64,000 bases of DNA from Lingula anatina (lineage: Eukaryota; Animalia; Brachiopoda). The notes under the pieces are model-generated. The model had not been told where the DNA came from, did no database searches, and worked only from the letters and a program-made list of their open reading frames with translations. Every line of letters begins with the position of its first letter. Positions within the stretch are counted from its first letter, which is position 1. The DNA lies in NCBI GenBank assembly GCA_051362555.1, contig CM120640.1:26150225-26214224 (forward strand), written 5' to 3'. Of the stretch, positions 1 to 35,209 are shown one piece after another. The position numbers and the translations under genes are program-made.

Positions 1-33
1 GAATGAGAGTTTTTTAACAAAATTTCCCATTAG

Positions 34-9848
<9,815 letters not shown>

Positions 9849-10096
9849 TATGAAGTTGAATTTCTGTTGTTTTCATCTGAAGTCAATATAAAACCATTTA
9901 TAGAACCAAAAAATACAGTAAATTTCAAATAAAAGCATATTCTCACACCCAAAAGTTGGATAAAAATTAAAAGGAGGCTCCCATTCCAAAGTTAATGCCA
10001 TAAAATGGGTATGAAACCAATCAATTCAAAATAAGAACTGCCTTTATCTATTATTTTTGTAATCGCAAGAATCTCAAGAAAAGGTTTATAACTTAC

Positions 10097-10520
10097 ATCA
10101 TCGTGAATGATTAAGAAGAAGCAAATTAAGCCACTAAGTTGCACAACTGCGACAACCGAACTTTCCGCGACGATATAAAGTCAATCTAAAGATGGCGCTG
10201 TGTTCGCCAGGAAAGTCTGAAAAAAAAAAAAAGAAAGAAAGAAAGAGCCAAAATTAGCAGTTTGGTTGACTTAATTTAAAAAACCGAATGCATAAAACTG
10301 TATCTACTACGTATGATTTGTTTTTAAAACTGATATAAAATGTAAAAGCACAATTTTTTCTTGTATCTCAAAGCTCTTGCGAACAAGAAGAGCGAAATGT
10401 GATTAATGTTTTGAATGGGAAAGGAAAACATGAAAAGGCACTTCGACCTATGTAGTGCCCAAGCACATGCAATTTGTCGCAAGAGTGGGGATATTCTAGA
10501 ATATATTGAACATATCTAAA
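10097..10520. promoter_or_regulatory. Putative bidirectional promoter between HELQ and the PNK-like/CYREN-like gene
   Basis: HELQ non-coding first exon ends at a GTAAGT donor (10096, minus); the opposite gene's ATG is at 10521. CpG-richer sequence with a YY1-like AAGATGGCG at ~10189. Confidence 0.6.
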
Positions 10521-13500
10521 ATGGACTTTCTATCAAAGCAAGCACTGTTATTCGTCGGACCTCCATCAGTTGTAAGTAAAAAGCTGTGCCCTTTTTATCG
10601 CAGTCAGTTTTACTCTCCCTAGCCTGGTCCACCGAAAATACGAAAACCGCGAAAACCAGAAGTTGCTCGGCAAAAACCTCACTATTAACCTACCAATTCT
10701 GATGTTCTCGACAAATTGCTGTAAAATTTGGATAACTTGGACCACATTACATACATCATGACCTTTGATAACGATGTTTCAATGAATTGAGTATGTAACA
10801 GCCGAGTTTTCTAGATCGGCAACCTAGCGTGGGAGCCATGTTTGGTTTACAATTGGCATGTATAAACAGCAGTGTCCCCTCAGGCCGACTAGATGCCATC
10901 TCAGGCAAGTATTGCTCTCTCATGCCAGTAATGCGGTTTTCGTGCATATGAATGTGGATAACAGCACACATTTTCTGCATACTTAATACATACAAAAGAA
11001 ACTAACAAACATTCATCAAGTAACATATACAAAATTGTTTTGTTCCAACTTGAAGTCAATTAATACTTATTTGTAAATGTCTTCTTTGTGCATGTGAAAA
11101 ATTCCTAACTGTACATGAAGTTGTAAGAACTTTGTATTTGCATAAAACCTTATAAAGAAAATATTCAATCACTAAATGTTTTTCATCATAAAAAAGTTGT
11201 TTTTGTTTGTTCAAATCATGTTAAAATAAAGGCTCTCTACATACCAAATTCCATTTTACCAAAGCAGTTATCAATACATATATAGCAAATGTGTGCACTG
11301 GCAAATTATTTTTTAAGAAAAGGGACTAAAGTCTCATTCCGGGACAACTACAGTGTATAGATAATACCACTAACCCAGTGGACTTGCACGCTTTTTATAA
11401 TTAATACATGGACTGTATTACGTTTTATATTAATAACAGTTTTATCAAAGAACTTTTAGGTTCATTTGACATTACACTCATTAGGATCTGGTTGTCATTA
11501 GTGGTATGCTTCCGGGGCTCTGTGCCCTCAGGAAGTGCTAAATCAGTAGCACAAGACCTGAAGTGAAGCCTGGCTGGAGAAACAATAACTGGGAAAGTAT
11601 CAATCACGTTCTCAAAATGAAAGTCAGCTGGAGGGTACAAGATGTACCAAGTTTAATCCAAAGCTTGCATGAGCTGGTCTGCAGCTATTATGGGGAAACA
11701 GAAAGAGCTATGATTGGACATGGAGAGTATCTCCTTGACACGGCTTATCAGAAATTCCAAGTAGACAGGGTTGTGTGAGCAAGAAAAACTAAGGAGCAAC
11801 GACAGCAGCACATGAAGAAATTTTTTTCAACTACAAAGTTGAAACAAGAGATGGCCTCTGCAGGCAATTTGCATGTCTTGACTGCTACAAACAAGGGGAA
11901 GAAACCATTCCAAAGGAAACGATCAAGGGCAGAGAGGGCAAAAACAAAGAATTAGTTGATTTTGCATAATGCATAATCTGTGCCCTCAGGAAGTGCTAAA
12001 TCAGTAGCACAAGACCTGAAGTGAAGCCTGGCTGGAGGAACAATAACTGGGAAAGTTTCAATCACGTTCTCAAAATGAAAGTCAGCTGGAGGGTACAAGA
12101 TGTACCAAGTTTAATCCAAAGCTTGCATGAGCTGGTCTGCAGCTATTATAGGGAAACAGAAAGAGCTATGATTAGACATGGAGAGTATCTCCTTGACACG
12201 GCTTATCAGAAATTCAAAGTAGACAGGGTTGTGCGGGCAAGAAAAACTGAGGAGCAACGACAGTGGCACATGAAGAAATATTTTTCAACTACAAAGTTGA
12301 AACAAGAGATGGCCTCTGCAGGTAATTTGCATGTCTTGACTGCTACAAACAAGGGGAAGAAACCATTCCAAAGGAAACGATCAAGGGCAGAGAGGGCAAA
12401 AACAAAGAATTAGTTGATCTTGCATAATGCATAATCTGTGCCCTCAGGAAGTGCTAAATCAGTAGCACAAGACCTGAAGTGAAGCCTGGCTGGAGGAACA
12501 ATAACTGGGAAAGTATCAATCACGTTCTCAAAATGAAAGTCAGCTGGAGGGTACAAGATGTACCAAGTTTAATCCAAAGCTTGCATGAGCTGGTCTGCAG
12601 CTATTATGGGGAAACAGAAAGAGCTATGATTGGACATGGAGAGTATCTCCTTGACACGGCTTATCAGAAATTCAAAGTAGACAGGGTTGTGTGGGCAAGA
12701 AAAACTAAGGAGCAACAACAGCTGGACATGAAGAAATTTTTTTCAACTACAAAGTTGAAACAAGAGATGGCTTCTGCAGGCAATTTGCATGTCTTGACTG
12801 CTTCAAACAAGGGGAAGAAACCATTCCAAAGGAAACAATCAAGGGCAGAGAGGGCAAAAACAAAGAATTAGTTGATCTTGCGTAATGCATAATGAAAATA
12901 GGTGATAACAATGCCGTGAAATATAATGTACTGTTTTATGAAAATTGAAGATGTCAGTTGTTTTTGACCTAGAATAATGTCTCCTTTCAAAAGTAGTTCA
13001 AATCATATGGGAGCTATTTGCTATTGCCAAAGCATAGTTCTTATTTGGCCAGATATTAAAAAGAATAAAGTTTGAGAGTAGATTTAATACAGGAGAGAGC
13101 TGCATGAGACTTTTTAACTTTCCCGTGTCGGCTTTGCTGATACAAACCTGTACAACATACTTCACAAAGTTATTCCAAATCAGCAAAGCAGTAGAAACTC
13201 TCTAATCAAACTCGGGTCCATCCTCATGTCAGCATCTCAGATGGTACTAGAGAGAATGTTATGTTTTGGGTTTCAAACTCAAATAATGTGAGAAGATTTA
13301 CAGAAGGAAAACCGAGTGCTTTTGAAGCCAATTGTAGGGTGTGGAAGAAGAATCCTTCCTCTAAAACTGTATTAGCAAAGGAAGATGAAAACTGGAAAGT
13401 TTACAAATGGAATTGTCTCTTTTGCATTCGACATACAGTTAAGGGAAATCCAAGATGGACCCACAACCAGAAACCACAATCAATGTCCAAAGGACTTACA

Positions 13501-16500
13501 ACTCATTAAAAGGCAACATCACATATCGTAGCCGCATTACATAGACTAAAAAATATCCAGATGTGATCCTAGTGAAGTACAGAGGGAAATTCCCAGACCA
13601 AATTCCACATGGCAATGCAACAAAGAACTTCTTATTGTCCCATGTCATCCATTGTATTTGACGCAATAAGGAAGAATGCAGCCCGCTTAAAACCCAAAGA
13701 GATATACAAAAAAACTGTACCAGGAAGCTCAACTTGAAAATGAGAAACATGCAAATTTAAGACAGGTGCAGAATTTAGTGGACTCTGTAAAAAAAAAAAG
13801 AGGCAATCGGAAGAAAACTTCTTTCTAAACAGGGGGTATGAATCTGGTCAGCAACTTTCTTTACCTGAAGAGTGGAATTCGTCAGCATCCTTTTGTGAGA
13901 AGAATATATAACTCACTAGCACCAGAAAGTTCCAACAATAATGCTTTTCACAGAAGGGCAAATTGCTGATGTGCAAAGATGTTGTTGTGCTGGATCTACT
14001 ACACACTGTGCTGTCTAAGGGGTGGATAAGACTTGGACCAACTGAATGTCACCTGTATGGTTTACAAAAACCTAGCTCTCATTCATCGAACAACAGGAAC
14101 ACATCCACTTTTTATCGGACCCATGTTTATCCATGGAAACTCTGAATTTAAGACATATGCCAGTTTTTTCAGATGTTGGCATTAGAATTAGTTGATTCTG
14201 TTTGCCCACCAGTTATTGGGTCTGATGAAAAGAAAGCACTGAGAAAAGCAGCGTCCTTTGCTTTCAGTGGCACTAACCTGGTGTCTTGCCAGCAGCATCT
14301 GAAGGAAAACGCCACACTACATATAAGAGACCTGGTGGGCACAACCACAGACACCAGAAAGGTGGTCACAGATGTCATATTTGGAGAGAACAGGTTGACC
14401 TCATCGCCTTCCCTCGTCATCCTGGAGCAGTGCCATGACAAGGCTTTGCAAGTCATCAGGGAAAAAGCTTCAAGATTTAATGCTGGCTGTTTCCATTGAT
14501 TGAAGAAATTATAAACATCAGCATCCTTTTGTGAGAAGAATAACTCATCAGAAGAGCAAATTGCTGATGTGCAACAATTTTGTTGAGCTGGACCTACTGC
14601 ACATGGAACTGTCTTAGGGGTGGATAAGACTTATAATTAGGCCAACTGAATGCCACTTGTAGGATTTACAAAAACCTAGCCCTCATCCACTGAGCAACGG
14701 GAAAACTCACCCACTTTTTATTGGAACTATGTTTATCAATAGCAACTCCGATTTTAAGACATGTGCCAGGTTGACCTCATCTCCTTCCCTCGTCATCCTG
14801 GAGCAGCGCCATGACGAGGCTTTGCAAGTCATTAGGGAAAATGCTTCAAGATTTGATGCTGGCTTTTTCCATTGATTGAAGAAAATACAAATACTTTCTG
14901 CACAATCTGAAGTAAAACCCGGCTAGACTAATAATAACTGTGAAAGTTTCAACCATGGACTCAAGATGAAGGTCAAATGGAGGGTGCAAGATGAACCAAA
15001 TTTACTCAAAAGTTTGCACAAGATCATCTGTGGGTATTACAGTGAAACACAGAGAGCAATAATTGCATGGGGAGAATATTATCTTGACACAGTATTTGAG
15101 AGATACCATGTAGACAGGGTTGTTTGGTCAAAGAAAACCTGAGGACCAACCACAGCACCATACGAAGAAATTTTTTGCAACTACAAAGTGAAAACAACAG
15201 ATGGCCTCTACAGACAATTTACATGTCCTAACTGCTCCAAACGAAGGGAAGAAGCCATTCCATAGAAAATGGTCAAGAGCAGAGAGGGCAAAAACACTGC
15301 ATTGGTTCAACTTGATCACACTTGGTCACAAGTAATCTGCAGTGCATAATTAAAATTGGTGGTAATTATGCTGTTTGATATCATGTACTATTGCATACGA
15401 ATTGAAGATAATCATGTCATTTATGATCAAATTAACAGAAAAGAAACAAGAATAAAATACAGCCCGAGTTGTAAATCAGCCTGATTGTTTTCCTTTTCTG
15501 GAAGTTATGCATTTTGTTTTTTTGGTGAAGTGCCAATTTTTTACAAAGTGTGACTTTAAACTTTCATGGACTTGAAGACCTTTGCAAGTCACATTGTCTG
15601 AATATCCATGATACTTTAATTATATAATTAAATATTCGTGGATAATGGTGGTGGATAATGCTGTCAAAATTGAGTTGGAAAACCACTATGATTGCATTCT
15701 TTTTTTCTCAAGAGCTATGCAGTTTATTGTGCACTTTTCATTTTTCACATATTGCCATTTTCAGTGCGGGACTTACAAATCCCAGGGGACACTGCTGATT
15801 ATACGTGTTGATGGTATTTAAACCAATTGGTAGGTTGCTGTTGTAGAAACTTAAACTTTTACTTACTTAATTCATTGACACTTTGCTATCAAATGTTATG
15901 GTGTACATATGTAATGTGGTCTAAGTTATCCAAATATTTGGCTAATTTGTCAACAACATTGAGTATTGGTAATTTTTAATGAGGTTAGATCCTAGCAACT
16001 ACCCACCCTTGGTTGTCAATTTATTGGCCAGTGAAACTAAAAAACACATAAAACGAATTTAAAATCCTTCATTTGTCTACCTTAGTGCCAATAGTACTTT
16101 TTAAAAAGTCAAGGTTTTTAAACAGTTTTTAAATAGTCACATAAACATTTGGGACCCCTATTCATATTCAGATCTTTTTTGTTTTACGCCTAAATGTGTG
16201 TAACATGTTTTCATTGGAATTCAAATGTGAAGCTTTGTCAGTGATTATCAAGAACAAATGAAGTAGACAGGACACTTCCTCTAAGTGCATTTGTAAAATA
16301 GCTCTACCTTTTTGTAAAAAAAAAAGGGGAAAAAATGTCAGTGACTTTGCCCAGAATTTTGTCCTCTTTAAGGTATTTTTCCAGCTTATGACTGACTCTC
16401 TGACAATTAAGCATGCCTCTCACCTGCCATAACATACATGTATGTTCCCTTTTCATTAGTGGTGCAGAAATAGTGATGATATAAAGGGTTCAGTGTCATT

Positions 16501-19500
16501 GGAGTGCTAGGGTACAATTACTCAGGCTAATATAGCTGTGGCTAATTTGTGAACCAAGTGGAGATCAATTTATCTTATGACTAAGGTGACTAGTGTAGTG
16601 GAGTACATAACTAAGAATCAGTATTGTGTATCTTTCATGACTGATTTGATGATGGGGATTCATGATTGAAATGACCATTTTCCTGAGTTTTTGTCTATTT
16701 TATTTTGATCATACTTAATATCACTTATTATAACAAGCAAGGGCTATACAGGTAAGTTAAAGTCAAGGAAAAGCATTAGATGTTCACTGGATCTTGGTTT
16801 TATTTCACGTAAGAATTCACAAGACATATAAAAACTAAAAAGAAGAAAAGAAAAGAAAATTACAATAATACACTCACTACCCGAGATTTATGTGCTTAAA
16901 TTTTCTTACACAAAAACTAATAATTTACAATAAGCACTAATAATCAAATGATAATAAACAGTATTAAAAAAACTCACCATTTCTGCCATTCCTGTAACTA
17001 TAAATTTCAAGTAGCAAAAGTGAAAATAACTGATCAAAAAGAAAGAATATACCATGTGTTCCTCCTACGAAGACACTGTGTTGAATGAAATAAAGTGCAA
17101 ACTCATGGGGTACCATCCTGAATGAAAAGTTATCATTTATGCAAATGTACATTGCATCAGATGTGCTGGATCACCTGGCTCTTCAAGCACAATGAAAGAA
17201 AAGCAATATAAACCTTACACTTAGATTATTACTCTTTTCAGGGAAAGACTTTATTTTTTAAGAACAAACTTGCAGGTACCCATGTACTGTTCTCACCCGA
17301 AGAGGAAATTGCAAAAGACAAACAGTTGGGTTTAAGACAACTTGCATTGAAAGTAGTAAAACTGCTGAAGCAGGTAGGTTATGTGCCAGATATGTAAATT
17401 AATTGCTAACACATATAATGGGAGCCAACTGAGGTTCAAACAAATCTTGCTAATAAGAACAAAGTAGTGCAAGACATTGTGAGAGTTGCTTCAAGATAGG
17501 GCTAAATTTATGGGTCACAAGTTGAAGTGAAGATTTCTCTAGCTGGAGTGAAGCAGAGCTAATGCAATTTTTGAGTCAGAGACTTGTAAAATTTTTCAAA
17601 TTATAAAGTACATACCCAAAGAGAACTTGCAGGAGTAGCTGATGACTTGGGTTTGTCAAGATTAGAGCCAGATGATGATGTTGGGAAAGTTTTGAAGGGG
17701 TTCCCTTTTTGCCCCTGATTTGAGGAATATACCTTCAGAAACTATGCCAAATTTTATGTCTCTGACAAAAAATATGATCCTAATGAAAGTCAATAGGGTT
17801 CATCCTTGACCAAATAGCAATCTATGGGAATTTTTTGAAACCAATTTTGTAAAAATTGTGGCCTCTATTATTAAATGGCCAAAAACCTGACCACAAACAA
17901 ACAAGCAGGCCAGTATACCTGTGATTTTTTATTTCCAGCTAATGACTGATTCTGTTACAAATACTGAGACAAAGCCCGTCATCAGTTTATGCATGACCCG
18001 TGATAATAACATAAATTTTTTTTCCAAAAATGACACAAAGAGAATGAGCTATCTGAAATATCAAGAAGTATATTTTATTTGTTACTCTGGTTTTATTGCA
18101 CTAAAATATAAGGTCATATCTGTAAAAAATTAAGTGAAAGCATGGCATTGATAATAATTCTGTAAATATCAAGTTAAAAAAAATTTTTTTTCACTTATAA
18201 TATTAATTAGAGGTGGCTGGAGATTTCACTGATCAAACACAGTGGTTTTATTGTACACCGTAGTCTGTCTGAAAAAAGGGCAGCATGTATTTTTGAAGTT
18301 ATACAGATATACTGTAAGTCCTTGGAAGCTACAGTAGTTAATTTGCCCAGGTATTTAAAAAATGTGAAATAGCAAATACATTACAGGTGGTGGAAAGTTT
18401 CATTCTTATTTTGAAATGGTTTATTTCAATAATTATGGCTATTCATTTTGTTTTTTATATGTATGTACAAAAAAGCATTGTGACAAGATTTGTGCATTTT
18501 AATCACTGGGTACCAAAACAAACAGACTGCCCCAGCTGGTCATTTTGGTAGTAATCAAACATGCCTCTTCCTGTCAGTAGAAAACAACTCTAATACTCAA
18601 AACTGATTGCCACTCATTTCCAAATTGTTATTATTTTCTAACAGGGAAAGAGGGTTGCTGTGGATGGTGAAAATAAGACCAGAAAATTGAGGAAATGCTA
18701 CATCCATATCATAAAAGAAAAGGTAAAGCATACAGCATGTCTTAATTAAGCAAATTTAAAATATGAACTATATGCAGTTGGCAGTTTGAAACATTCATTG
18801 AATAATCTTTTGAAATCCAGTTTTCTTTGATATATAATGTACATGGTGTATTTAGTTATACTTTGCAGAAGATATAATTTGAATGCTTTGATGTAAAACT
18901 TGGACTACTTTTTTACTTGTACTGTATCATTTTAGGTCCCTGACTGCAGCATTGCAATAGTTCTCTTCCGGCCTAAATATGGTATGATTCAGCTGCAGTG
19001 GGCCCAGGCATTTTCACAAGCTGGTGATTTTCTCACGGGGAAGTCCTTGAAAGATGTTGAAGACTTACCTTCAACAGAAAAACAGTTCAAATCATGGTTG
19101 AATGCACTGAGTGGTATAAAGAATGCAGATGATGATGATGGGCCAGGTAAAAGAGTTTAGGTCCATGCACTGTTTATTGCCATATGTCAACTTCACCTTG
19201 TAGATTTATTCAAAGCACAATACCCAAACATGCTTGTCAGTTAATTTAAAATATGTACCCACTGAAATTCTCAATGTTTTTACCATAATGCACATAAGCC
19301 TTGGTGTGTGAATTCAATGTTTTTGTAACAATTTTAAGAGTTTAAATGTTTTAAACATTGACAGTTGTAAGTATTTTTATGGTTCCCAATACAAAACTAA
19401 ATAATTTTTTAAAAATTTTGATACAAAACATTTCCATCATTGTAGACATGCCAAAGGAATCTGAAGGTTGTACAGTTGGAGACATCAGTCTGAGATTGGA

Positions 19501-22500
19501 AGTTGAGACTGGATGGAAGGTAGGCATACAACTCACTTATCTTTCTAAAGAACATAAAATACTGTACTTACTATGTGCTGTAAAACAGTGTCTTCTTATA
19601 TAACTTTATCATAGCTAAATAAGAACAAGATTTTTTCCAGTTCGAAGTTCCTGGTCTGTTCATAGAATGGCAGTCATTACTGAATGTTAGACCTTCTGAA
19701 CAACTGGCTATAGAAACTGGTGCAGTGGAAGCTGTCGAGGCCTGGTATACAAAGTACATGTGTGGGAGGGTCATCATCATTTTTGATGGAAGAAAAGGTA
19801 AGATAAACCTACTGGAATTTAAATGGGCTATTTATATTAATATTTTATTTTTATTGATGAGGATGTATTTCAGTGTAATAACTTACACAGTAAGGTGGGC
19901 ATGAAAGTGTACTTGATTGATTAGAGACATTCTGGAGAAGTGTAGATGGTTAAATTTTGACAACTTGACATTTTTCATTTTTAAAAAAATAAATCAAACT
20001 CTTGAACACCAATATATGTGAAATGGTAGCATGTTGATAATCTTTTGTATTGTAGATAAAAATGATATTAATTTTTGTCAAGCACATTAAAAAACAGAAA
20101 ATGTATACTGCATCACTTTTTGTGCCCATTATACATATATATTTTTTAGGCACAAGAAGAGATCAAAAGGAGTCAAACTTTCAACAGATGGAAGATACCT
20201 TGATCAAATTTTCAGAACAGATTCGGTCCTGTCCTATCTATGCACTCTGTGTAGAAAACAGAGAAATACCTGGGGATTTTGCCGAACCTTTAGGACCCAG
20301 CCTCATTGCCTTTGCTCAGAGACTGCATCATCTAGACCTTCAGAACAAGGCAGGAATTGTAACTTTGAAAGTTTTAAAATTCATAATTTTGCAGTAAATG
20401 AAAGTTTCTTTTCTAATTTTATAAGCAATCCATTGTAACTGCTGATTACTTTGTCACAATTTACATGTATACCATTGACAAATTGAATTATTTTAGGGCA
20501 CGGTTTACCTATACACTTCCCAAGAACATTTACATTGTGCGACAGCAGCAGGAGTTAAGCATATAAAGGTATAACTCAAGTGTAAGAATGCTTTTATATT
20601 TTCAAATTCTGGATTTACATGTACCAGTGAGAATGTGCCAGACTTTTGCCATTGTGGATGGACCTTTGGGTCAGTAAGATGTGGATTTAAGTGTCTCAGA
20701 CAAAAAAAATTAGAAGGGCCTAAAGCTGATATGGATACTCTCATTCTGCCTAGGAAATAAATAATCCACAAGAATTAGCTATGTGTTCATTGTAAGTTAC
20801 AATCTGTGTGTAACAGGTGAAAGAAAGATCATTTAGGTACTTGTGAAAGTAATATCTCATAATCTTAGAACATTATAAAGTACCAAAAAGTTTTAGCTCT
20901 CTAGATGTTGAAATCTAAATGTTTTTTTTTTCAGGCATCTAAAGCATTTTCTAATCCAGCTATGGTAAGCTCCATTTATTTAAGTATTGTAAGTCTACCT
21001 GATGTCAACACTTAAAATTTTTTGATCATATCATCAATAGTTCAACATTGAAAAATACAGCTTATAATGCAAGGCATGCATATGGATATTTTGAAGATGA
21101 TGTAACACAATTTATGGTTTTTAGTTCATCAGCTTTATAGTATAGTCAAGCAAATTATGTTGATATTTATCATGCCAGTAACTGTTTTCCAGATGGTGTC
21201 TGGTTATGGAGTGACCACCCCATATACACCTCCACTGTTAGCTGATGTTGGTTTCATTAGCTCATCTTCTAGGTGGAGACACCAAGCAGTACCTTTGGCT
21301 GAAGATGAGGAGGCACTTACCAATCGGAAATGGACTTGTGTTAAATTAGGATTTAGGAGAAAAATGTTTCTCTTTTGTAGAGATATTGGTCAATTGGAAA
21401 GGTACAAGAAAATTGATTTTGATTATCTCTGCACTTTGGTGACAATTTGTTTTTCAGGTTTGGGATATTTTATTACATACTGTATGAATGAAGTTTATAA
21501 AATTATGTGTTTCATAACGTTTTTTACTTGTTTGATGCATAAGACTACAATAAAGAACATTGCATGCTGGTTGATTTGGAACCGTTCAAGTTAAAACATT
21601 TATTTGAAAATGTACATTTCATTTCTGCTGTAACCACAAGCCCTTGGCAAATTTGTTATTTTAGTTATATACAAGACTACAAACATTATAGAACTCCCAT
21701 CGATGAACGTGGTAGCAGGATAGCAGAATTAAATCACAATATCTCTGAACCTGTCCAGACTCCTAGGAAAACTCCAACAGTATTTCTTAGTGACAAAACC
21801 AGGGACCTTCCAAAGTGGATGCTATGCAAGAAGAAAAAAATGGAGAGGAGTAGTGGAATACAGAATGTGTCAGAAGTATCTTCTACACTTGACCTTGACT
21901 GTGATGACCCTGATGATGTTGCTGAACAAAATGTAAAAAGGTAACATAATACTATTGAAAAATAGGTATAGCTAAACAAAGAATGTTAGAAATATGTTTA
22001 TGTTGGCAGCTTGTTTCAGCATATTGTACAGTTGTCATGTTATAGGGACAATTTGAATTAAGATGAAGGAATAAGATGCTTCAGTAGTGCTGGTTCTCTT
22101 TTCCTCAAAAGTATCAGCAGTAGTGATAAATTTGATATTTTCTAGAAAGCAATGAACATTTTCACAACAATCAGCAGTATGTTTACCTTAACTTTGAATG
22201 TTGTTCTAAGTTGCTGATTTACATGTGTAAACCAAACAAAGTTAAAACAATGGCACATTAAATTGTCTAAATGGAAATTAACCTTTTTTTCTTTCTTGCA
22301 AACCCCTGCAAACTGGTTGCTGCATACTTCAAGTTTGCATCAAATTTGCTGCAATTTTTTTTTTTTTTTTGCTAAGGTTTGTCCTATGTGCATTAATCTT
22401 CACCATCTTTCAAAGGCAGACATTTAAGTGTGTGTTGTCTTTTATAATGTTAATTGAAGGAGCAGAATCTGTCAGACAGTGTATGTCCTGGATGAAGATG

Positions 22501-23461
22501 AACTGATGCAGACTGCACAAATGGTTCTGAAAGAGGCAAGTCTTAATCCAAAAAATAATATAACCTAGATCTATATAAAATGGGGAAATTACTATTTAGC
22601 AGTCTGTTGCATCTTACAGTCTAAAATAATGAAAGAAAAGCATTTGAGAACTTTTTTCTTCTTGAAAAGATTTTTTTCACTTCTGTTTTTGTTGATGATT
22701 TTATTTCCTCAGGTTTTACACCTGGTGTCATTAATAAAATTTTATACGCAATTACTTTTTTTTGTAATACAATGACTTCTCAACTTAAATCATGTTAAGT
22801 ACACTCATTTAATTTTACAGGCAGGTCAAGTTGTAGGTGATATTGTAGATGAACATCCCCAGAACAGTTTAAGAAGTAGAGTTAAAGGAACTGTAAAGGA
22901 GATACGAGATGATCATTCAAAGCAAAGGGAGACAGTATCTAATAGCAATGAATGCTTGAAAATGATGCAAAGAACAGAAATCAAGAGATTAGACCACTTA
23001 GACTCCCATTCTATGAGTGTTAATTCAGACATGCCCTCTCAGGTACATAGTGGAAATTATGTAAACATAGGAAGCGACAAAGAACATAAACAATCTGCCC
23101 CAGCGGGAAATATGTCAACTATTTTAGATGGCATAATCAGCAAGGTTGACAAAAGGCCACCTCCAAAAAGCAAAAGGTGAGTACTTTTTGTCCATACAAC
23201 CTCCCTGTCATATACTTAAAATCCTAAATTTAAACTCATGACTGAATGGTCAGATAATTTTGTCTGAAAAATGAGGCTTACCATTATTTTTTTCAAATGG
23301 ACAATATTGGATGTTTGATCTAAAAACAATTTTTGTTTCATTTCAGAAAAAGTGTTGGAAGGATTTCACCTGGATTGTTGGATTTTACAATTGACACATC
23401 CACAGCCGATTCAGGAAGCATATCAAATATTAGATACGATTGCAAAACACAACCAAGTTAA
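10521..23461 (+). CDS. Uncharacterised ~681-aa protein: PNK-like (AAA_33-type) P-loop domain + degenerate HAD domain + CYREN/MRI-like Ku-binding module
   Basis: 14 phase-compatible exons (10521-10571, 17242-17373, 18645-18722, 18936-19146, 19446-19519, 19641-19797, 20150-20358, 20497-20568, 20935-20964, 21193-21401, 21665-21940, 22460-22535, 22821-23176, 23347-23461) give 2046 nt with no internal stop. Motifs: LLFVGPPSV|GKT, GKRVAVDGEN..RKCYI, PKESEG, PGLFIEWQSLL, RVIIIFDG, ATAAGVKHI, KTRDLPKWML, TVYVLDEDELMQTAQMVLKE. Confidence 0.8.
11518..12890 (+). repeat. Three tandem 458-bp copies of the transposase C-terminal segment
   Basis: ORF starts at 11563, 12021 and 12479, exactly 458 bp apart; each encodes WRNNNWES(I/F)NHVLK..., the catalytic Glu region. 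Confidence 0.92.
13200..15320 (+). pseudogene. Frameshifted MULE-type DDE transposase
   Basis: GVDKT (first D, ~14020), HPLFIGPMFIHGNS, IGSDEKKALRKA (second D), CQQH (CxxH) and TNNNCESFNH (E, ~14930). Many stops and frameshifts, plus an internal duplication (~14517-14885 repeats parts of 13883-14510). Confidence 0.75.
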
Positions 23462-23937
23462 GAATTAATGACATTAGGAAAGACATTAATTAAGAAAGCT
23501 TTCTATAAAAGCCATTGTTTTTACTTAGGACATATGGTATAGACCCCCATCAAGAATATATTACCATTGACCCCATGAATAGTCAACATGAAAAAAATCA
23601 AACATGGAATATGTTATTCATTTTATATATTAAATAAGATTAAAAGGCCCCGATACTTCAGATTTTATTTTCTTATTAAGTATATAACCACTATTACTCT
23701 GTGATGTAACACTTAAATAGTATTGTCTATGGCACTCTGGGCATTATACTTTGATGGCTAGGCAGGCCCCATCCTGGTGATGCATTCTGTTTCAATCTGG
23801 AAAAGGTAAATCTGGTCATCAGGCTTTCTGAATAGTTCAATACAAACAAAATCTATTCATGATGTGACATTCTTTAGTGGACTTAACAATTATGAATAAT
23901 AACTTATGCCGACTGAAAATGTCAGCATTAGGAAGTC

Positions 23938-25050
23938 TTTTTTATGTACAGACACAGATGTGTCTGTACATATTGCCATCACCTGTGTCTGTCGTCGCCG
24001 TCGTCGCCGATGCCGATGCTGATGCCGATGCCGATGCCGATGGCAATGCCGTCGCCGTGCACTTTCACTGTAAACACGATAAGTGGAACACAGTTTTATT
24101 TTTTGCTTTTATATTTACAGAGCTGATGAATATTCATAAAACGCAGGTCAAGTTCGAAAATCAGCATGATCGGGCCATTATTGTAGAAGTTATGCTGTTT
24201 TATCACTTTTCAGCATATATGCAACCCTGTAAACACATTTTAAGGAAAACCGTTAGGCCTGTTGTCATGAAACTCACAAGAGTAATCAATCTTACTAAAA
24301 CGCAGGTCAAGTTCGAAAATTGGCATGATCGGGCCACTATTTTACTATTTATGCTGTTTTTTTCCTTTTTTTCAGCATATATGCAACACTGTAAACACAA
24401 TATAAGAAAAACCGATAGGCCAATTGCCATTAAACTCACAGGAGTGGTCAGTCTTACTAAAATGCAGGTCGAGTTCGAAAATCAGCATAATCGGGCCATT
24501 ATTTAAGAAGTTATGCTGTTTTTTCACATTTCCTCAGATTCAATTCTTAGGCATGTTAACAGTCTTTTTATTTTACTAATAAGATACATTAAAGTGTTTG
24601 TTTGACATTTCCTGCATCTTTACAACATTGTTAGTTGATTATGTAAAAATGATGGTAAACTTGTTATCGTGTATTGTGTAATAAAGTGTCAAAAATGGAA
24701 ATAAACTCATATCATTGCAGTTTGTCAGATTCAATCATTCACTATGTTCAGAATCTCAGAATGGAGGAAATTGGACATTTAACACTGTTCTATTGATATT
24801 TTTCCCATCTCATCAATTATCTTAGTTGATCATATAAAAATTGCAGTAAACTGTTCATTTTGTTTTATGTTAAAAAAGTGTTAAAAATGGAAATAAACCC
24901 ATTTCAGAACAGTGCTGTCTTGTTAAAATTTGATGTTGGATTTGAAGTTTAACAATATGTACTTTTGCATCAGAATTGGCAGTAGCCTATTTTGTGCATA
25001 GTTATTTCCTGCTTTTTGTCTGTACATTTGACAGCTTTGCTGCCTTGTTT
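23938..25050 (+). mobile_element. HINE family 1, complete copy
   Basis: TTTTT-ATGTACAGACA/TGTCTGTACAT head, (GCCGAT)n, internal subrepeats, ends TGTCTGTACATTTGACAGCTTTGCTGCCTTGTTT. Confidence 0.85.
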
Positions 25051-25096
25051 AAAAAAAATAACAAAATTCAAAAGAGCACTGTAAGATTTGGCCTCA

Positions 25097-26433
25097 TTTT
25101 TATGTACAGACACAGATGTGTCTGTACATATTGCCATCACCTGCGTCTGTCGACGCCGTCGCCGATGGCGATGCCGATGGCGATGCCGATGCCGGCGCCA
25201 TGCACTTTCCTTGTAAACACCATAAGTGGAGGGCAGTTTTACTTTTTGGCTTTATATTTACAGAGCTGATGAATATTCATAAAACGCAGGTCAAGTTCGA
25301 AAATCAGCATGATCGGGCCATTATTGTAGAAGTTATGCTGTTTTTTCACTTTTCAGCATATTTTTCACATTTCCTCAGATTCAATTCTTAGGCATGTTAA
25401 CAGTCTCATTATTAAACTAATAAGATACGTAAAAGTTTTTGTTTGACATTTCCTGCATCTTTATAACATTGTTAGTTGATTTTGTAAAAATGATGGTAAA
25501 CTTGTTATCGTGTATTGTGTAATAAAGTTTCAAAAATGGAAATAAACTCATATCATTGCAGTTTGTCAGATTCAATCATTCACTGTGTTCAGAATCTCAG
25601 AATGGAAGAAATTGGACATTTAACACTGCTCTATTGATATTTTTCCCATCTCATCAATTTTCTTAGTTGATTATATAAAAATGGCAGTAAACTGTTAATT
25701 TTGTTTTATGTTAAAAATTGTTAAATATGGAAAAAAAAAACATTTCAGAACAGTGCTGTCTTGTTTACATTTTGGCATTTTCAAGTTGTGTCTTTGAAGT
25801 TCCATGGGCCTGAAGACCTTTGCTAGTCACATTTTCTGAATATCTATGATACTAATATTTTATTATTAAAAATTGATGGTAATTATGCTGTTAAACATTA
25901 TGTAATATTGCATCAAAATTTGAAAAAAACCTATTTTGGGCACTGCTCCCATGATGATCATTTAAGAAAAACCATGTCACTTACTGTTCTCAAACAGTAA
26001 AGTAAATATATATATAGATGTGTCTGTACATATTGCCATCACCTGCGTCTGTCGTCCCCGTCATCGCCGTCACCGGCGCCGTGCACTTTCATTGTAAACA
26101 CGATAAGTGGAAGGCAGTTTTACTTTTTGGTTTTATATTTACAGAGCTGATGAATATTCATAAAACGCAGGCCAAGTTCGACAATCAGCATGATCAGGTC
26201 ATTATTGTAGAAGTTATGCTTTATTTTTCACTTTTCAGCATATATGCAACACTGTAAACACATTCCAAGGAAAACCGATAGGCCTGTTGTCATGAAACTC
26301 ACAAGAGTAATCTATCTTACTAAAACGCAGGTCAAGTTAGAAAATCGGCATGATCAGGCCACTATTTTAGTAGTTATGCTTTTTTTTTCACTTTTCAGCA
26401 TATATGCAACACTGTAAACACAATATAAGAAAA
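25097..26433 (+). mobile_element. HINE family 1, two heads (25097 and ~26016), interrupted at 26433
   Basis: Same head and body as the 23938 copy; the body stops at ...caatataagaaaaa. Confidence 0.8.
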
Positions 26434-27175
26434 AGGCAGCAAAGCTGTCAAATGTACAGACAAAAAACAGAAAATAAAGATGCAAAATAGGTCATTTTGT
26501 CAATTTTGATGCAATAATAAATAATGCTTATAATAGCACTGTCAGTCAACACTGAATTTTAATCATGCACAACAGGTAACATGGTCAATAACAGGAGTGG
26601 ACCCAGAGATATTGCAAAATTTACCTGCATAATTATCACTGCTTCCTTATTATTAATCTAGCAGACTGGCTTAATCTTTGGGAGTTTACAGGGAAATATC
26701 AACAACTGTGCTTTATGTAATCTCATTTAATAACCTATTAATTAGGCAAGTGACTTTATAACTCTGCACTTAGCTTAGTGATACCCAAGGGAAATTTACA
26801 GACTGACCCTCTCAAAGGTCTTTCAGGCCAGTAAGTCACATCTTAACAAAAGCAGAAAGTAATAATGCACAAAATAGGATGCTGTCAATTCTGATGCAAT
26901 AATATATTACGCTTAACTGCAAAGTCAACATCAAATTTAAATTATGCAAAACAGGTAATATGAGAAAAATGAGAATTTCACAAAAAGTTGCGTTAATTCA
27001 ATAAAAAATGATAATCCAATAGAGTTTCTTCATTTTCGTTGCAATATTACATAATGCATAATGACCATCAATTTTAATAATGAAATAAAATTATCATGGA
27101 TATTCAGACTAGCAAAGGTCTTCAAACCCATGGAAGTTCAAAGTCACACCTTGAAAATGTCGATATGTGAAAAAT
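26434..27175 (-). mobile_element. HINE family 1 3' end, opposite orientation, diverged
   Basis: Starts ggcagcaaagctgtcaaatgtacagaca (reverse complement of the 3' subTIR and hairpin), followed by diverged internal repeats. Confidence 0.7.
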
Positions 27176-29165
27176 TTAAGGATGAGTGCAGATAACCATT
27201 GGCAAAGTGCCTATCGTCAAATTTTTTTAATAATTTGCTATTATAAAGTTTATGCATATATTTGTTGTGTGAAAAAATATTATTTGGTTTGAGGCATCGT
27301 ATTTTTAATGAGTTATATGTGGGGGTGGAGGTAACCAGATTTACCTGTTGTATGCAGTCTAATATGAAACAGAGCAAGTTATTTCAGCATATATATTGCA
27401 TAAATAATTTTTTCTAATGAAACTTGTCTTGTGGTGAAAAAAAGAGTTATATGTTAAATAATTGCGATGTGGCACAAGTAAATGGGAAAGTAATTGTTTT
27501 TTTTTTGTTTGTTTGTTTGTTTTTTTAATCCTAGAGAAGAGAGGGAGGGGTGGTGTATTACAATATTTTCTCACAGAAACCATCACTGATTTCACTTAAC
27601 TGTATAAAAGTCTTGTAACTAGAAAAACTTGTATCAGCGTATTTATTAATTTTATATAACTTTTCTCACAGACCAGCATTTGTTGGTCTAAATAATTATA
27701 TTGTTAACCAATACACATTTTGTACAGAGCCCTATAGAATAGTAAAAAATGCTAAAAGCAAAAGGCTGTTACAGAAACACAAAAAAATCATGTGTTAAAG
27801 CACTCTAAACACCTATTTGGAATGTTTCCATTAACCATACAATAAACAAGGTATAAATTGTACCAAAATAATGATAAGGTAAAAGTAAAAACTAAATGAA
27901 AATGTAGTACACATAATAACAGTAATGGCCAATAATCTGTATGACAATGAAAAAAAATCACCTAAAAAGTACTTCATATATGATAATGTATGTGATAAAG
28001 ACCTTTTATAGAAAGCAATGCAAGAGTTATTTTATACAAAATATATAAATATGAGAATAAAAAATGTATAATAAACAATAGATAATTAATCAGATGTGCT
28101 GTCTGAAACACTTTCTGCCTCGCTAATACTCTCACCACTTGATGTTGGTAAATGCAAGAAGTTATAACTTCTTGGTAAATGTGAGGCATCCTACCTCCCT
28201 ACCTCCCCCCCCCCACACGCACACACACACAAACACACACGCGAAAGTTTTTTTAAACCATGTAATGCCAGTTCTGAGCTGTGAATAGGGGAACTATGGG
28301 TCGCTGCATGCCATCTTCTTTCAAGCAAATCAAAGAAATGTTAAAATATTTAAGCAATTATAAATAGTAACTAAAACATTTTAATTTAAAAATCACAGCA
28401 AGCATATTATCTTTTCGTTATCCTTTCTCCTTGCAAAATCAAAGCAACCAAAGAAACTGGACAACTCCACATAAATATTAATCGCAAAAATGTATTATCA
28501 CTTCATCTTTATTGTCATCATCTGTGAAACAAGATATGAAATGAAAGTTTCTTCAAAGTGCATTGTGGATCAGTGTATATTGTGGATAAGTGTTCCAGTG
28601 TACGCGGACAAGGTCGTTCAATGACGGCCTGGGGCAGGTTGGTAAACTTCAAGTTGATATCATGTCAACAAGATGCAAGGACACTGTCAATCACAGTTAG
28701 GGGAGAGGCATGCGTGGTTTCCCTTCAAAAACTATTATAGCCTAACATTGATTCTTCCCTCCGAAGTAAATGTGTGATTTTTTCCTTTTAAACAAAAAAG
28801 TTAAGGTATGAAAACGCTGAATGTATTTCAAACGTAGGTGTATATACAATACAAATAATGAAATCTGTGTCTCACTCTCACACGACACCCCCGCGTCCAA
28901 ACTGACAGGATGGTGGCGACAGCAACGCCCCCAGTCGACAATCTAAGATTGGAAGTCTAGGAACTGCAAGTCTTCAAAATGGTTGAATAAGTTTAAATCA
29001 GTGAAAAGGGATCCAAAAAATAGTTTTTCATTTTAATACTTATCATTCATCAGCTTTTGCATTTTATTAGATAAGGACAATAATGGCACGAGGATGGAAA
29101 AAATCTTGGTTTTGTCTAGTTTTGCTTGCTATATGCATTTATATAAAAAAATTGGGCCTCAATTC

Positions 29166-29200
<35 letters not shown>

Positions 29201-29828
29201 TAGTGCCAGTAGATAAGGATAACAATGGCACAGGAATGGGAAAAACTAGTTTTTTTCTCGTTTTACTTGTGTTATAGTCAAGAACATATACATTTATACA
29301 CAATGTACCCCTTCGTTAACATTAAGAGGTGTTGGGTTCTTAAATCTACAGTGGGATTTATTTAAGTAAGATAGTTACTTCTCTAATTTGACTCAGGAAA
29401 GTCTAGGTAACGGCTCGAGTTATTCCTGGGGCTCCATAACTTAAAAGCATCGCGTATTGCGAACGGCGATATCACATAGAGGCTACAGTGTATTACATGG
29501 GGCGAGCATGGGCAAGTAATGGAATCGAGACACTTGCGCTCAGTCGCAATGCGCGCTGCTTTCGAGTTACGGGGCCCGGGAGAGCAAAGTAACGCAGCAC
29601 CACAGCTTTGTATCAAAAAACTAAAATTCAACTCATTACCTGGACATCGGCTAGTTTTATGGAAGAAATTGGAGTGACAGAAATAGTGACGAGATTGTAA
29701 AAGTTTAAGTGAGAGGCGAAAGAGGATAATTTCTACTAATGATTAAACAAGCATACATGCGAGTCCATTTAAATTTATTTGCAAGTCTCGCTTTTTTTAG
29801 CGATCTGTACACGACCACTTTTTTTTTA

Positions 29829-29829
<1 letters not shown>

Positions 29830-29877
<48 letters not shown>
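29830..29877. repeat. Poly(A) tract (~48 nt)
   Basis: Uninterrupted A run preceded by a T run; a second A run lies at ~29173-29199. Confidence 0.95.
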
Positions 29878-29879
<2 letters not shown>

Positions 29880-32514
29880 AAATTATAGAATATTTTTTAT
29901 TCAACTATTATGTACAATTTTGAATATTTACAGTTGATTTAAAAAGGACTAATAATCAGTAATGAACTACGTAAACGCAATGAATTAATACATAGCAGTA
30001 TTATCAAAAGTTCTAAGATTTTCCATCGTCTTCATCTAGCGTCCGATAATGCAGGTCTTGTGGTCGGAAACTGGTACCAGATGCTCTCGGGCCGTGGGGA
30101 AAAAACCGTCTAAACCCTTCGTGGGGAATGCCGGGAAAGTGCCCACGCCCGGAAAATTCGGTCCTTATAACATGACGAAATCGGTTTCTATTGGCACGGC
30201 GCTGCGTACAGTTCAAGAATCGTCCCGTTTTAGACAGCATTGTGTGACGGAATAACCTTTGTCTTGACTAACTATTCTCTATATATACTATACACGAGGT
30301 GAAGCATAAAAACTTATTAAAGTAATTCTTACAGAAAAAGGCACTGAAGCCAATAAAAAACTAACAAGAGACATAACAATTAAACAGAATCATTTTGACT
30401 TTATCTTGGAGAATTAAAACCATAAATAAAGTTAATCATTTTACAACTGCAAGCATCTTTCAAAACTTGATAATAGTTCTCTTTATGATAAAATGCAAAC
30501 AGATTCAAGTAATATGATTATAACTCGGGAATATCAATGATTTCAACTAAACTTTGATATATAATTCGACTTAAAATACCAGGTTTCTAAAATGTAACTT
30601 TGCACTGAAATCGCAACTACCTGCATGATACAAGTACAGAATAAAGCAAGCTTGCTTCAAAATATTTCGGATCTCACATTACACTGTATGACCGCCCATG
30701 TAAAGTTGAATCTGAATTTTTTTGATCCGGAGAAAAGGTGCATATGTGATGAAGTGGATGTATTTGTCAACTATAACACTTGAGAAAATCTGAATATTAG
30801 TAATGTGATCTCTATCTTGAGAGATGACAGCATCTCTCAAGAAGAGCAGACTGTACAAAAAATATAATGAAATATTTTCTCACACGTAAAATATTTAATT
30901 ACAGATTTTGCACAATCTATCAATGTAAAATCTCTTCATGTAAAAGCGTTTACATGAAGTCAGATTTTACAAAGATGTGAGGGTTTGTTAGTAAGGTTAG
31001 TGTGCAGGTTAAGACCTTTTCAAATGCCATACTGACAAACAACTCCACATCATCAAAAGCACAAATTTGAAAAATGACCATCTCAGATTGAAACAAAACA
31101 CAGACGACCACAAGTGGTGGGAATGTTTTTGTGAGCAAAAAACTATCTGCATTCAGAATGTGGATAAAGCAACTCTATATTCAAATTTATTAATATAATA
31201 ATTATAGCAACTGTAGAGGTAGACTTTTCCTACAGAAGCACACATCTTATGCAATTGATCTTGTATGGAATGAAGAATTATCTTGAACCTCAGTTTTCTC
31301 TTCTGTTATTGAAATAAAATGGTTCACTGCATAAGGTATAAAATACAAATGAAATTGAAGCAATTTCACCTTGACATGTTTGTGACCCATGAACCCCAAA
31401 TATTCTCAGCATCCAAAAGACATTAGACTGTATTCAGTACTGTATATTGCCTTCATTACCATTCCACATTCTCTATATTTGTTTGCAGAAAAAGCCGTGT
31501 CCTTCAACACCAAAACTCGTGGGATGTCCGAGCATCGATGAAAGTGTCCACAGGGCTCCTTGCTAACGCTGTACAGTGTTTAACATCTTGGACATTTGGT
31601 CTTGGGTCGACGTTATCCGACATCATGCAGGCAGGCTGTTTTTATTGGAAAACTCCCAATTCGTAGCCTACAAATGAAATCCAACTTTTACTCAAAAGTA
31701 TGAAAAGCTATATCGAAAGCTTGCAGTAACTGCAACAAAGAAAGTATATCACTGGTATTTACACACCGTTAACATTAATGAAAAGCTTGGTTCTTAAAAT
31801 GATCAGAGCGTTATTTCCAAATGTACAGTGAAATATGCTTCCTTTATTGAAATATATATATTAACTTTTTAGAGTAAGTAGACAGCAGTCTTCAAAAAAT
31901 AAATTATTTCAAACATTTGACAAAAAAGTAAGAAAAGATGTTGCTATATTGAATATTGTAATGTTAGCCTACATGTTAAATTGTTGACTGTCTGTGCTAC
32001 TTCTAATTCTACTGTTTGTTTACATAGGATATAGTTTTTGATCACTGTCAATAATAAGAAATGCCATAATACACCAATAATAATACTTAAAAATTCAGAA
32101 CCACTTATTCTTGATCCCCAATAACTTACAAAGTTATCTTTATAAAGATCCCTCAATCCTGAAGAAGTGTTTCATCTGGAGGTTTGGTAGTTGCAATCTT
32201 CATTTTTAGAATCCACCACTTTTGGTAGCCTGCAAATTTAAATTATTACTTCAAAATGTAATAAAAGTCAACCATTTGTATATGAAATGTGTTTTTAAAG
32301 TTTCAGCAGTTTGATGGGAAATAAATATCAAAAGCACTTTTGTCACAAACTTGGAAAAAACATTCAAGCGAAATATTTTGACATGCCACTGGCGACCTTC
32401 AGACTTAATGTCACAATGGGGTATTGCACAAATTAGTTTTAACGAAGGAAAAGGAATACTAACAGCATTTAAACGACTACTCAAAGACAAGTTTAAGTAA
32501 AGCCTGAACAATCT

Positions 32515-33245
32515 AGATCCAGCGGGAGGAGTGTACTAGTATTCCATCAAGTGTTTAATTTGTGAAGGATTTATATGGGAGAGAAAGAGAAAGTTGAACG
32601 TTAGAGTTAAAGAACACGGGAAGGAATAAGAAAGGGTACCCGAAGAGGGAAAAATACACTACAGCCCAAGGTAGCCTTCTGCTACAACGAACCATCACAA
32701 AAAAACATTGATTGGGAGAGTGCCAAGATTCTACAAAAAGAAAGTGACTGGAGAACAAGAGGCGTAAAGGGAGGCATATAAACCAGGAAAATGCCTAACA
32801 ATCTGAACAATATAGAGAGATGGAAATAAATACTCACTTCTACGGTGGCCTTTTATTACCACAACCACAGCACTGGAGGTGGGGGTGGTAGCTGCTAGTA
32901 TACAATTTCTGGACCAGTGACAACGTCCCGGAGTCACATTGGTGGTGGGTGTTGGGGGCGGTAGCTCCAAGTAATCTGGACCAGTAACCACGCCCTGGAG
33001 TCACATTGGTGGTGGTGGGTGGTGGGGGCGGTAGCTCCAAGTAATCTGGACCAGTGACCACGCCTCGGAGTCACATTGGTGGTGGTGGGTGGTGGGAGCG
33101 GTAGCTCCAAGTAATCTGGACCAGTGACCACGCCTCGGAGTCACATTGGTGGTGGTGGGTGGTGGGGGCGGTAGCTCCAAGTAATCTCGACCATTGACAA
33201 CGTTCTGCAGAATATCGAGACTGTTGAGGATCTGAAAGTTGACGA
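32515..33245 (+). mobile_element. Penelope-like retroelement 3' remnant (degenerate GIY-YIG endonuclease)
   Basis: With frameshifts it reads GV(Y)..KCLICEGF(Y)MGE..RKLNVRVKEH...HKKNIDWESAKILQKESDWRTRGVK(E)A..NNLN..RDGNKYSL, the typical PLE GIY-YIG pattern. Confidence 0.7.
32909..33200. repeat. ~70-bp G-rich minisatellite, ~4 copies
   Basis: Unit ctggaccagtgaccacgcctcggagtcacattggtggtggtgggtggtgggggcggtagctccaagtaat at ~32909, 32976, 33046, 33116 and a partial at 33186. Confidence 0.92.
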
Positions 33246-34667: not shown

Positions 34668-35150
34668 ACAGGACTCGCTGGACGCTTCCTAGTGCAGCCA
34701 CCTCGTAGACAGACCATGGCAGGACTCGCTGGACGCTTCCCCAGTGCAGCCACCTCGTAGACGGACCATGGCAGGACTCGCTGGACGCTTCCCAAGTGCA
34801 GCCACCTCGCAGATAGACCATGGCAGGACTCGCTGGACGCTTCCCCAGTGCAGCCACCTCGCAACCAGACCATGGCAGGACTCGCTGGACGCTTCCCCGG
34901 TGCAGCCAACCTCGTAGACAGACCATGACAGGACCCGCTGGACGCTTTCCCGGTGCAGCCACCTCGTAGACATACCATGGCAGGACTCGCTGGACGCTTC
35001 CCCTGTGCCGCCACCTCGTAGACAGACCATGGCAGGACTCGCTGGACGCTTCCCCAGTGCAGCCACCTCGTAGACAGACCATGGCAGGACTCGCTGGACG
35101 CTTCCCCAGTGAAGCCACCTCGTAGAGAGACCATGGCAGGACTCGCTGGC
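34668..35150. repeat. 52-bp GC-rich minisatellite, ~9 copies
   Basis: Unit ggcaggactcgctggacgcttccccagtgcagccacctcgtagacagaccat starting at 34718, 34770, 34822, 34874, 34927, 34979, 35031, 35083 and 35135. Confidence 0.95.
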
Positions 35151-35209
35151 TCCAAGGGATGGTCGAAGTAGCTTAAGTGTAGATGTGGGGTGTCTCCTTG
35201 CAGTTGTGT

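Follow-up and report, generated by a model that had tools for sequence, protein, structure and literature searches.

Eukaryotic PNKP has the domain order FHA-phosphatase-kinase. Human MRI1, a mostly disordered protein of 157 aa, is reported to contain an APLF-type Ku-binding motif (A-KBM), a multimerisation domain (MuD) at residues 49-81 with 54YCMN57 and V64/L66/I68/L69, and a C-terminal XLF-type Ku-binding motif (X-KBM), and Met at MRI position 17 to give a more than 30-fold higher Ku affinity (bioRxiv 10.64898/2026.07.22.740027). In PMC4831024, SETKTRVLPSWLTA and VLKYVREIFFS are listed, the consensus is written as R-X-X-P-X-W, and A-KBMs are described in the unrelated proteins APLF, WRN and MRI. 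In the accessible part of a survey of the genes for non-homologous end joining (NHEJ), CYREN/MRI (C7orf49) is named as the least conserved NHEJ factor, and one sentence mentions a sea urchin protein in which a PNKP-like part is fused to a motif resembling the N-terminal KBM of CYREN/MRI (bioRxiv 10.1101/2023.05.26.542399). Here we describe a gene of the brachiopod Lingula anatina, located at 10521..23461 on the plus strand of a 64,000-nucleotide stretch (GCA_051362555.1, contig CM120640.1, positions 26,150,225 to 26,214,224), the whole of which is called the window. Its product combines predicted PNKP-like kinase and HAD folds with a tail carrying CYREN-like motifs, and is probably a non-enzymatic NHEJ adaptor docked on Ku80 and a long form of CYREN.

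The gene possesses 14 exons, which run from the ATG at 10521 to the TAA at 23461 and, joined at the splice signals of the window DNA, give a stop-free frame of 678 aa. Twelve GT-AG-type acceptors/donors were found, and exons 7 and 12 are each followed by a GC donor. The features of the gene are the following, with folds as predicted:

10521..10571, plus strand: exon 1, start codon, aa 1-17, first Walker A half GPPSV; the RefSeq N-terminus matches
10572..17241, plus strand: intron 1, 6,670 bp, interrupting the P-loop and containing tandem repeat copies of about 458 bp (self-BLAST)
17242..17373, plus strand: exon 2, aa 18-61, opening with the Walker A half GKT; joint 2-3 in RNA
17299-17301, plus strand: codon 37, in exon 2, at the PNKP Asp396 column; Glu in the window, Lys in the RefSeq allele
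18645..18722, plus strand: exon 3, aa 62-87, in the PNK kinase fold, with its DxxN...R motif
18936..19146, plus strand: exon 4, aa 88-158, lid region of the kinase fold with a conserved QxxW; joint 4-5 in RNA
19446..19519, plus strand: exon 5, aa 158-182, final strand of the kinase fold; joints 4-5 and 5-6
19641..19797, plus strand: exon 6, aa 183-235, beginning of the HAD fold; joints 5-6 and 6-7
19665-19673, plus strand: EWQ in place of DxD, in exon 6
20150..20349, plus strand: exon 7, aa 235-301, HAD motif III region with Pro281 in place of Lys; GC donor; joint 7-8
20497..20568, plus strand: exon 8, aa 302-325, HAD motif IV region with His312 in place of Asp; joint 8-9 in 2 reads
20935..20964, plus strand: exon 9, 30 nt, aa 326-335; junction 9-10 absent among the RNA joints listed
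21193..21401, plus strand: exon 10, aa 336-405, end of the HAD fold and part of an extension at about aa 341-434; joint 10-11
21665..21940, plus strand: exon 11, aa 405-497, containing the A-KBM
21795..21824, plus strand: APLF-like Ku-binding motif KTRDLPKWML, with R451, P454, W456 and M457
22460..22535, plus strand: exon 12, aa 497-522; GC donor; joined to exon 11 by 11 loose-end reads
22476-22535, plus strand: MuD-like motif TVYVLDEDELMQTAQMVLKE, in exon 12
22821..23176, plus strand: exon 13, aa 523-641, disordered; matches RefSeq
23118-23138, plus strand: internal X-KBM-like TILDGII, in exon 13
23347..23461, plus strand: exon 14, aa 642-678 and stop, without the terminal LxxLDxIF motif of the family

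The initial annotation, made from the letters of the window, had proposed a single stop-free gene of 14 exons and had quoted the KTRDLPKWML and MuD-like motifs and a P-loop split by an intron; all three are located as claimed. It had counted 681 aa; the product has 678, because the RNA joints show exon 7 to be spliced from the GC donor at 20350, and the longer count likely came from using a GT 9 nt downstream.

For four RNA runs, 6-25% of each was aligned to positions 9400-22300 of the window only. Over the exons, two runs reached a sense-strand depth of about 2-8, and the remaining two stayed close to zero. Among the joints listed, RNA connects exons 2-3, 4-5, 5-6, 6-7, 7-8 and 10-11; junction 8-9 is present in 2 reads, and the loose ends that join exon 11 to exon 12 match the start of exon 12 in 28 of 30 letters. 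At least 8 of the 13 junctions are supported in this way, and none of the joints listed at this low depth corresponds to junctions 1-2, 3-4 or 9-10, so that the proposed splicing is borne out in part. Junctions 12-13 and 13-14 fall outside the covered region. Twelve out of the 22 exon codons altered by the RNA variants listed are changed synonymously, against a chance expectation of 21.5% (70 further variants lie outside this count). The search with exon 4 gave a single match, RefSeq isoform X1 of LOC106158479 from Lingula anatina (678 aa), and the alignment of the spliced product to XP_013389946.1 of the same species is gap-free (653/678 identical). The reads alone do not close the chain from kinase to KBM; it is closed by the RefSeq model and by the relatives that carry both parts in one protein. 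Two separate genes, one for the kinase and one for the KBM, are rejected on the basis of that model and of the presence of a loose KBM in the same chain in 29 out of 35 full-architecture relatives. Lingula thus possesses one expressed gene, with a kinase-to-KBM architecture conserved across its family.

A database model of 930 aa (P0003) contains exons 2-4 twice, together with sequence of the intron repeat, and RefSeq isoform X2 begins in exon 4. The window carries one copy of exons 2-4; a duplication or an assembly artefact in the reference assembly may lie behind P0003.

The search with phmmer against 1.84 billion representatives (E<=0.001) revealed a family of 74 proteins including the query, whereas word-indexed homologue searches returned the Lingula protein alone. 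Names were looked up for 20 out of the 73 relatives and obtained for 15, which belong to a hemichordate (Glandiceps), a nemertean (Lineus), a bivalve (Sinanodonta), a starfish (Patiria), an amphioxus (Branchiostoma), an urchin (Diadema), a coral (Acropora), a sponge (Sycon), an annelid (Dimorphilus), the holozoans Capsaspora and Creolimax, the amoebozoans Heterostelium, Cavenderia and Balamuthia, and the malawimonad Gefionella. The fusion is therefore present in spiralians and deuterostomes, where the initial annotation had suggested looking for it, and beyond them. The named relatives are annotated as uncharacterised or SWIM-domain proteins only, and no vertebrate is among them. A FastTree tree of 44 out of the 74 sequences, those with a core coverage of 70% or more, was rooted on the amoebozoans and gave the order holozoans, sponge and other animals with modest support. 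This order is roughly that of the species tree and fits vertical descent, short of proof.

Several relatives, including those of the coral, the sponge, Capsaspora and Cavenderia, also possess a SWIM-type zinc finger after the HAD fold (P0028, P0029, P0031, P0058, P0064, P0066, P0067 and P0069), which is absent from the Lingula protein. The finger sits before the KBM where a KBM exists.

An AlphaFold2 model built with 32 sequences, with a mean predicted local distance difference test score of 73, is confident over residues 1-434; beyond 434 it predicts disorder, interrupted by the KBM and by a helix at 509-522. Residues 1-179 are predicted to form a PNKP-type kinase fold (VIA Z 12.9 to mPNKP, root-mean-square deviation (rmsd) 2.9, 144 residues aligned), and the family profile matches the mouse PNKP kinase with E 5.6e-7. 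Residues 184-340 are predicted to form a HAD-IIIA fold (VIA Z 11.8 to GmhB, rmsd 2.7, 149 residues aligned). These limits agree with the kinase at about 1-180 and the HAD fold at about 185-335 expected from the initial annotation. The Pfam matches to AAA_33/PNK and MRI that it had also expected did not appear: Pfam searches with 12 single exons and with the whole Lingula protein gave nothing significant, with no AAA_33, PNK3P, MRI or FHA match in the protein, and phmmer searches of the PDB with P0001 and P0075 gave nothing significant either. Among the relatives, TIGR01663 matches 12 out of 37 members and TIGR01664 3 out of 37 (E<=0.1, far under the curated cut-off of TIGR01663), and PNK3P matches P0075 with 26.2 bits, above its cut-off of 22. 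The kinase-then-HAD order is shared with T4 PNK (VIA Z 11.2 over residues 5-328, rmsd 14.4) and with a viral AAA_33+PNK3P cluster (Atlas template-modelling score 0.75 over 294 residues). Each of the two folds is thus predicted to be nearest to PNKP-type enzymes, with the kinase first.

A viral origin was considered for this domain order but gained no support: tblastn of P0075 against phages gave nothing, the PHROGs matches were weak, and hhalign to T4 PseT aligned the P-loop only. The conserved hairpin-helix extension at residues 341-434, modelled in P0061, had no Foldseek match at E<=0.001 and a best VIA Z of 3.0, which does not in itself show a new fold.

The HAD catalytic motifs of E. coli GmhB comprise D11/D13, K111 and D140. 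In the hhalign alignment to GmhB (E 2e-4), these residues correspond to E191/Q193, P281 and H312 of the Lingula protein. The losses extend through the family: DxD occurs anywhere in 186-198 in none of 53 sequences, Lys at the motif III column 281 in none of 52, and the second motif IV column (312) holds Asp in 1 out of 51, while the first HAD Asp is retained in 11 out of 55, mainly non-animals. In the kinase half, two profiles place mouse PNKP Asp396 at position 37, where Asp is found in 1 out of 54 sequences. Two Lingula alleles differ at codon 37, that of the window encoding Glu and that of RefSeq Lys, and in hnRNPUL2 a Glu at the Asp396-equivalent site is reported not to have conferred activity (PMC13066744). 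Walker A is intact in Lingula (GPPSVGKT) and, as GxxxxGK[ST], in 30 out of the 48 relatives covering the site; it has decayed in the clade containing the bivalve, and nearly all members outside the mollusc clade keep it. An intact Walker A together with Asp or Glu at position 37 occurs in 3 out of 48. With the HAD DxD, the residues of motifs III and IV and the kinase base Asp lost, the phosphatase almost certainly has no activity, and the kinase half probably no longer works as a polynucleotide kinase. The family protein is accordingly likely, as judged from its residues, to be a pseudoenzyme and not the end-processing enzyme that the initial annotation had envisaged.

Tail motifs were counted in the 43 out of 74 proteins with at least 150 residues beyond the HAD fold. 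The strict A-KBM occurs in 29 of these tails and the loose form in 36 (maximum in 1000 shuffles: 2 and 2), the MuD-like motif in 32 (maximum 4) and a terminal X-KBM in 16 (maximum 1), most of the animal relatives having been recruited by a query that itself contains the motifs. The RxLPxW and TVY motifs, on whose conservation the initial annotation depended, are therefore kept far beyond shuffles. In the 35 proteins with both folds and a tail, the corresponding numbers are 23 strict A-KBMs, 29 loose A-KBMs, 25 MuD-like motifs and 12 terminal X-KBMs. The strict KBM was also found in five distant relatives matched via the kinase stretch alone (P0043, P0048, P0051, P0058 and P0075). Met follows the A-KBM Trp in 33 out of 38 cases, including the RDLPKWM of Lingula. 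The spacing from this Trp to the MuD Tyr has a median of 37 in the family, compared with 38 in human MRI. Members of the deuterostome clade have an exact YCM[NS], and those of the hemichordate clade an exact YCMN; in the MuD register, I68 is aligned in 28 and L69 in 25 out of 29. On the C-terminal profile of the family, the human MRI X-KBM scores 8.1 bits, against -17.3 for XLF, -5.7 for WRN and -20.2 for PAXX. The MuD-like segment modelled as a dimer gave a score of 0.02 and a mark of 0.32, a result that counts neither for nor against multimerisation.

The amphioxus proteins P0079 and P0016 carry four to six X-KBM-like copies of the form LD.I in their tails. In several other animals the X-KBM-like motif is present once internally and once at the terminus.

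A non-enzymatic, Ku80-docked CYREN long form would act as follows. The A-KBM, with its high-affinity Met, would bind the vWA pocket of Ku80 (XP_013403161.1 in Lingula), a protein listed for Lingula in PMC8549938. The MuD-like strand-helix would drive self-association, and the terminal X-KBM would provide a second Ku contact in most bilaterian relatives, as in human MRI1. The dead module may serve as a scaffold or as a nucleotide-binding switch brought to Ku-bound ends, for which the dead PNK domain of hnRNPUL1, serving RNA and protein contacts, could be an analogy. Vertebrate CYREN would then be the same tail after loss of the folded module. A more tentative proposal, possible at best, is that CYREN/MRI represents the reduced tail of an old eukaryotic Ku partner that predates the split of animals and amoebae, in which the dead PNKP-like module, accompanied by the SWIM finger in several early-branching members, would cap or sense DNA ends via its P-loop.

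Several observations weigh against a dead, CYREN-like adaptor, and some of them favour other explanations. Within the gene model, junctions 3-4 and 9-10 are the covered ones between exon 2 and the KBM that lack RNA reads among the joints listed. The kinase half may still be active, with residual 5'-polynucleotide kinase activity or another acceptor, which would make the protein a Ku-tethered enzyme with a dead phosphatase, in the manner of the WRN exonuclease on its A-KBM as described in the accessible text of PMC13377182. The intact Walker A of Lingula and of the 30 relatives agrees with this explanation, as do D68, N71 and R77, which are kept in 43/57, 41/56 and 55/60 sequences, and position 38 is acidic in 38 out of 54, where a register error of one residue would matter. 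Mouse D396N is moreover reported to retain 23% activity, and some other kinases of the fold to lack the base (PMC2764422). A dead kinase is consequently not proven by the loss at position 37. Nonetheless, with the base Asp gone from nearly all members, an active kinase appears unlikely. The columns corresponding to R395, T423 and R432, DNA contacts of mouse PNKP according to PMC2764422, are occupied by P/A, E/D and S (numbering from the alignment), which weakens the case for binding of ends in the PNKP manner.

The likeness of the tail to CYREN is also subject to objections. The motif patterns were composed after the alignment was seen, and R-x-x-P-x-W alone is reported to occur in more than 600 human proteins (PMC4831024). 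Human L66 is unmatched, as the family has K/R/E there, and the C-terminal profile was chosen for an [IL]F ending; 1% of random peptides with this ending reach as high a score. The Lingula terminus lacks an X-KBM and the protein has only the internal TILDGII; no exon with a terminal X-KBM was found downstream (23177-33000). Even the loose KBM is missing in 6 out of the 35 full-architecture relatives, including those of Acropora, Capsaspora, Creolimax and Dimorphilus, and the MuD pattern is missing in all three named amoebozoans. The Pfam MRI profile, which we take to be PF15325, had no match in 50 + 8 proteins, and vertebrate CYREN, whose full sequence was not among the comparisons, is thus not linked to the family by profiles; HMMER filters may drop short motifs such as those of MRI. 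The Atlas search with the hemichordate tail gave no usable match, and vertebrate members may be present among the 53 relatives for which no names were looked up.

Alternatively, the KBM could be a genuine Ku tether of an independent Ku partner, with the CYREN likeness due to convergence of short motifs and CYREN having a separate origin. The missing link via Pfam MRI or Atlas, the A-KBMs of the unrelated APLF, WRN and MRI, and amoebozoan members with a KBM but without the MuD or terminal X-KBM pattern all agree with convergence. In contrast, the three motifs share the order and spacing of CYREN, YCMN is exact in hemichordate-clade members, and the X-KBM is of the MRI type and not that of XLF, WRN or PAXX, which makes convergence rather improbable. 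That the tail binds a non-Ku partner in a role outside NHEJ, such as RNA-end handling or replication, is very improbable. In its favour, RNA-repair enzymes such as T4 Pnkp and Pnkp1 have the same kinase-then-HAD order, proteomes contain many minimal KBMs, and Ku binding is a prediction from sequence. Against it, the motif in its extended form (R, L/I, P, W, M) has the Ku80-binding residues of MRI/APLF and is kept from Amoebozoa to chordates, and the catalytic residues for RNA repair are missing.

Upstream of the Lingula gene, the window possesses a HELQ/POLQ-family helicase gene on the minus strand (1-10230), arranged head to head at about 0.4 kb from the ATG at 10521. Its 5' part is the following:

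9492..10230 (upper end approximate), minus strand: 5' exons of the HELQ/POLQ-family helicase gene, with a minus-strand intron at 9877-10096 in RNA

The downstream exons of this gene match DEAD and POLQ_helical, and it is expressed more than the CYREN-like gene; from its motifs we take it to be HELQ. The two genes, both likely to act in repair, may have a promoter in common. Within intron 1, positions 11519-15409 contain about three tandem copies of the 458-bp repeat (97% alike) and a more distant copy, with broken open reading frames (ORFs; NNNWES..HVLKMKV). The repeat had no Pfam match and is presumably a DNA-transposon remnant. Two intronic pieces, 15337-15763 and 10701-10824, draw RNA reads that match in part and have loose ends, which fits dispersed repeats with expression elsewhere. 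Further downstream, the minus strand carries non-LTR retroelement fragments at 40793-43732 (RVT_1, E 9.5e-37) and a kinase-like ORF at 60784-62093 with a weak PIP49_C match, which we assume to resemble protein O-mannose kinase. Tandem repeat arrays at 35239-37461 and 34571-35245 yield long open frames, which are probably non-coding.

If the family is the long form of CYREN, CYREN would have a deep pedigree and would clearly illustrate how a folded protein can shrink to an adaptor made of motifs alone. An unannotated Ku partner would then be present in molluscs, echinoderms, amphioxus, sponges and social amoebae, and most invertebrates would have an overlooked NHEJ factor in which a folded domain does the job of the disordered microprotein of vertebrates. 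What a PNKP-like module with two dead sites does at breaks would also become directly testable.

The initial annotation had considered the architecture undescribed. This holds for the family, of which no description was found, and fails for the fusion itself, which the sea urchin sentence mentions. That protein very likely belongs to the same family, as a Diadema member is among the relatives. The accessible text of the survey refers to sea urchin only and includes no MuD or X-KBM, dead sites, domain order or range (bioRxiv 10.1101/2023.05.26.542399). Beyond this sentence nothing was found in the literature, and subscription journals and bioRxiv supplements may say more. The fusion thus appears to have been noted before but unstudied, and the range of the family, the three-motif match to CYREN and the dead sites appear undescribed.

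Compared with hnRNPUL1, the Lingula protein is similar in possessing a PNKP-like kinase fold minus the catalytic Asp in a protein linked to break repair; in the available description of hnRNPUL1, however, the PNK domain is paired with SPRY and RGG and not with HAD and KBM, and the likeness is at the level of the fold (PMC13066744). Similar to T4 Pnkp, Pnkp1 and the viral AAA_33+PNK3P proteins, the Lingula protein has the kinase before the HAD fold, but it shows no sequence link to the T4 and viral enzymes, has lost the catalytic residues, is encoded by a eukaryotic intron-containing gene and possesses a KBM tail. Mammalian PNKP (PNK-3'Pase, TIGR01663) is the top match of the kinase in both sequence and structure, and the predicted HAD fold falls into the IIIA/DNA 3'-phosphatase type. 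Unlike PNKP, the Lingula protein lacks FHA and has the reversed order, with a KBM tail in place of recruitment through FHA, and the base Asp, the DNA-contact residues and the HAD catalytic residues are gone in the family. With CYREN/MRI the family shares the A-KBM, the MuD-like strand-helix and, in 16 out of 43 tails, a terminal X-KBM of MRI type; the order of the motifs is unchanged, the distance from KBM to MuD is similar, and the setting is disordered. In contrast to the short MRI1, the Lingula protein carries about 430 folded residues in front of this tail, and it has neither the terminal X-KBM nor a Pfam MRI match. It probably acts like CYREN, yet stands outside strict CYREN by size and profile, and outside strict PNKP by domain order and catalytic residues.

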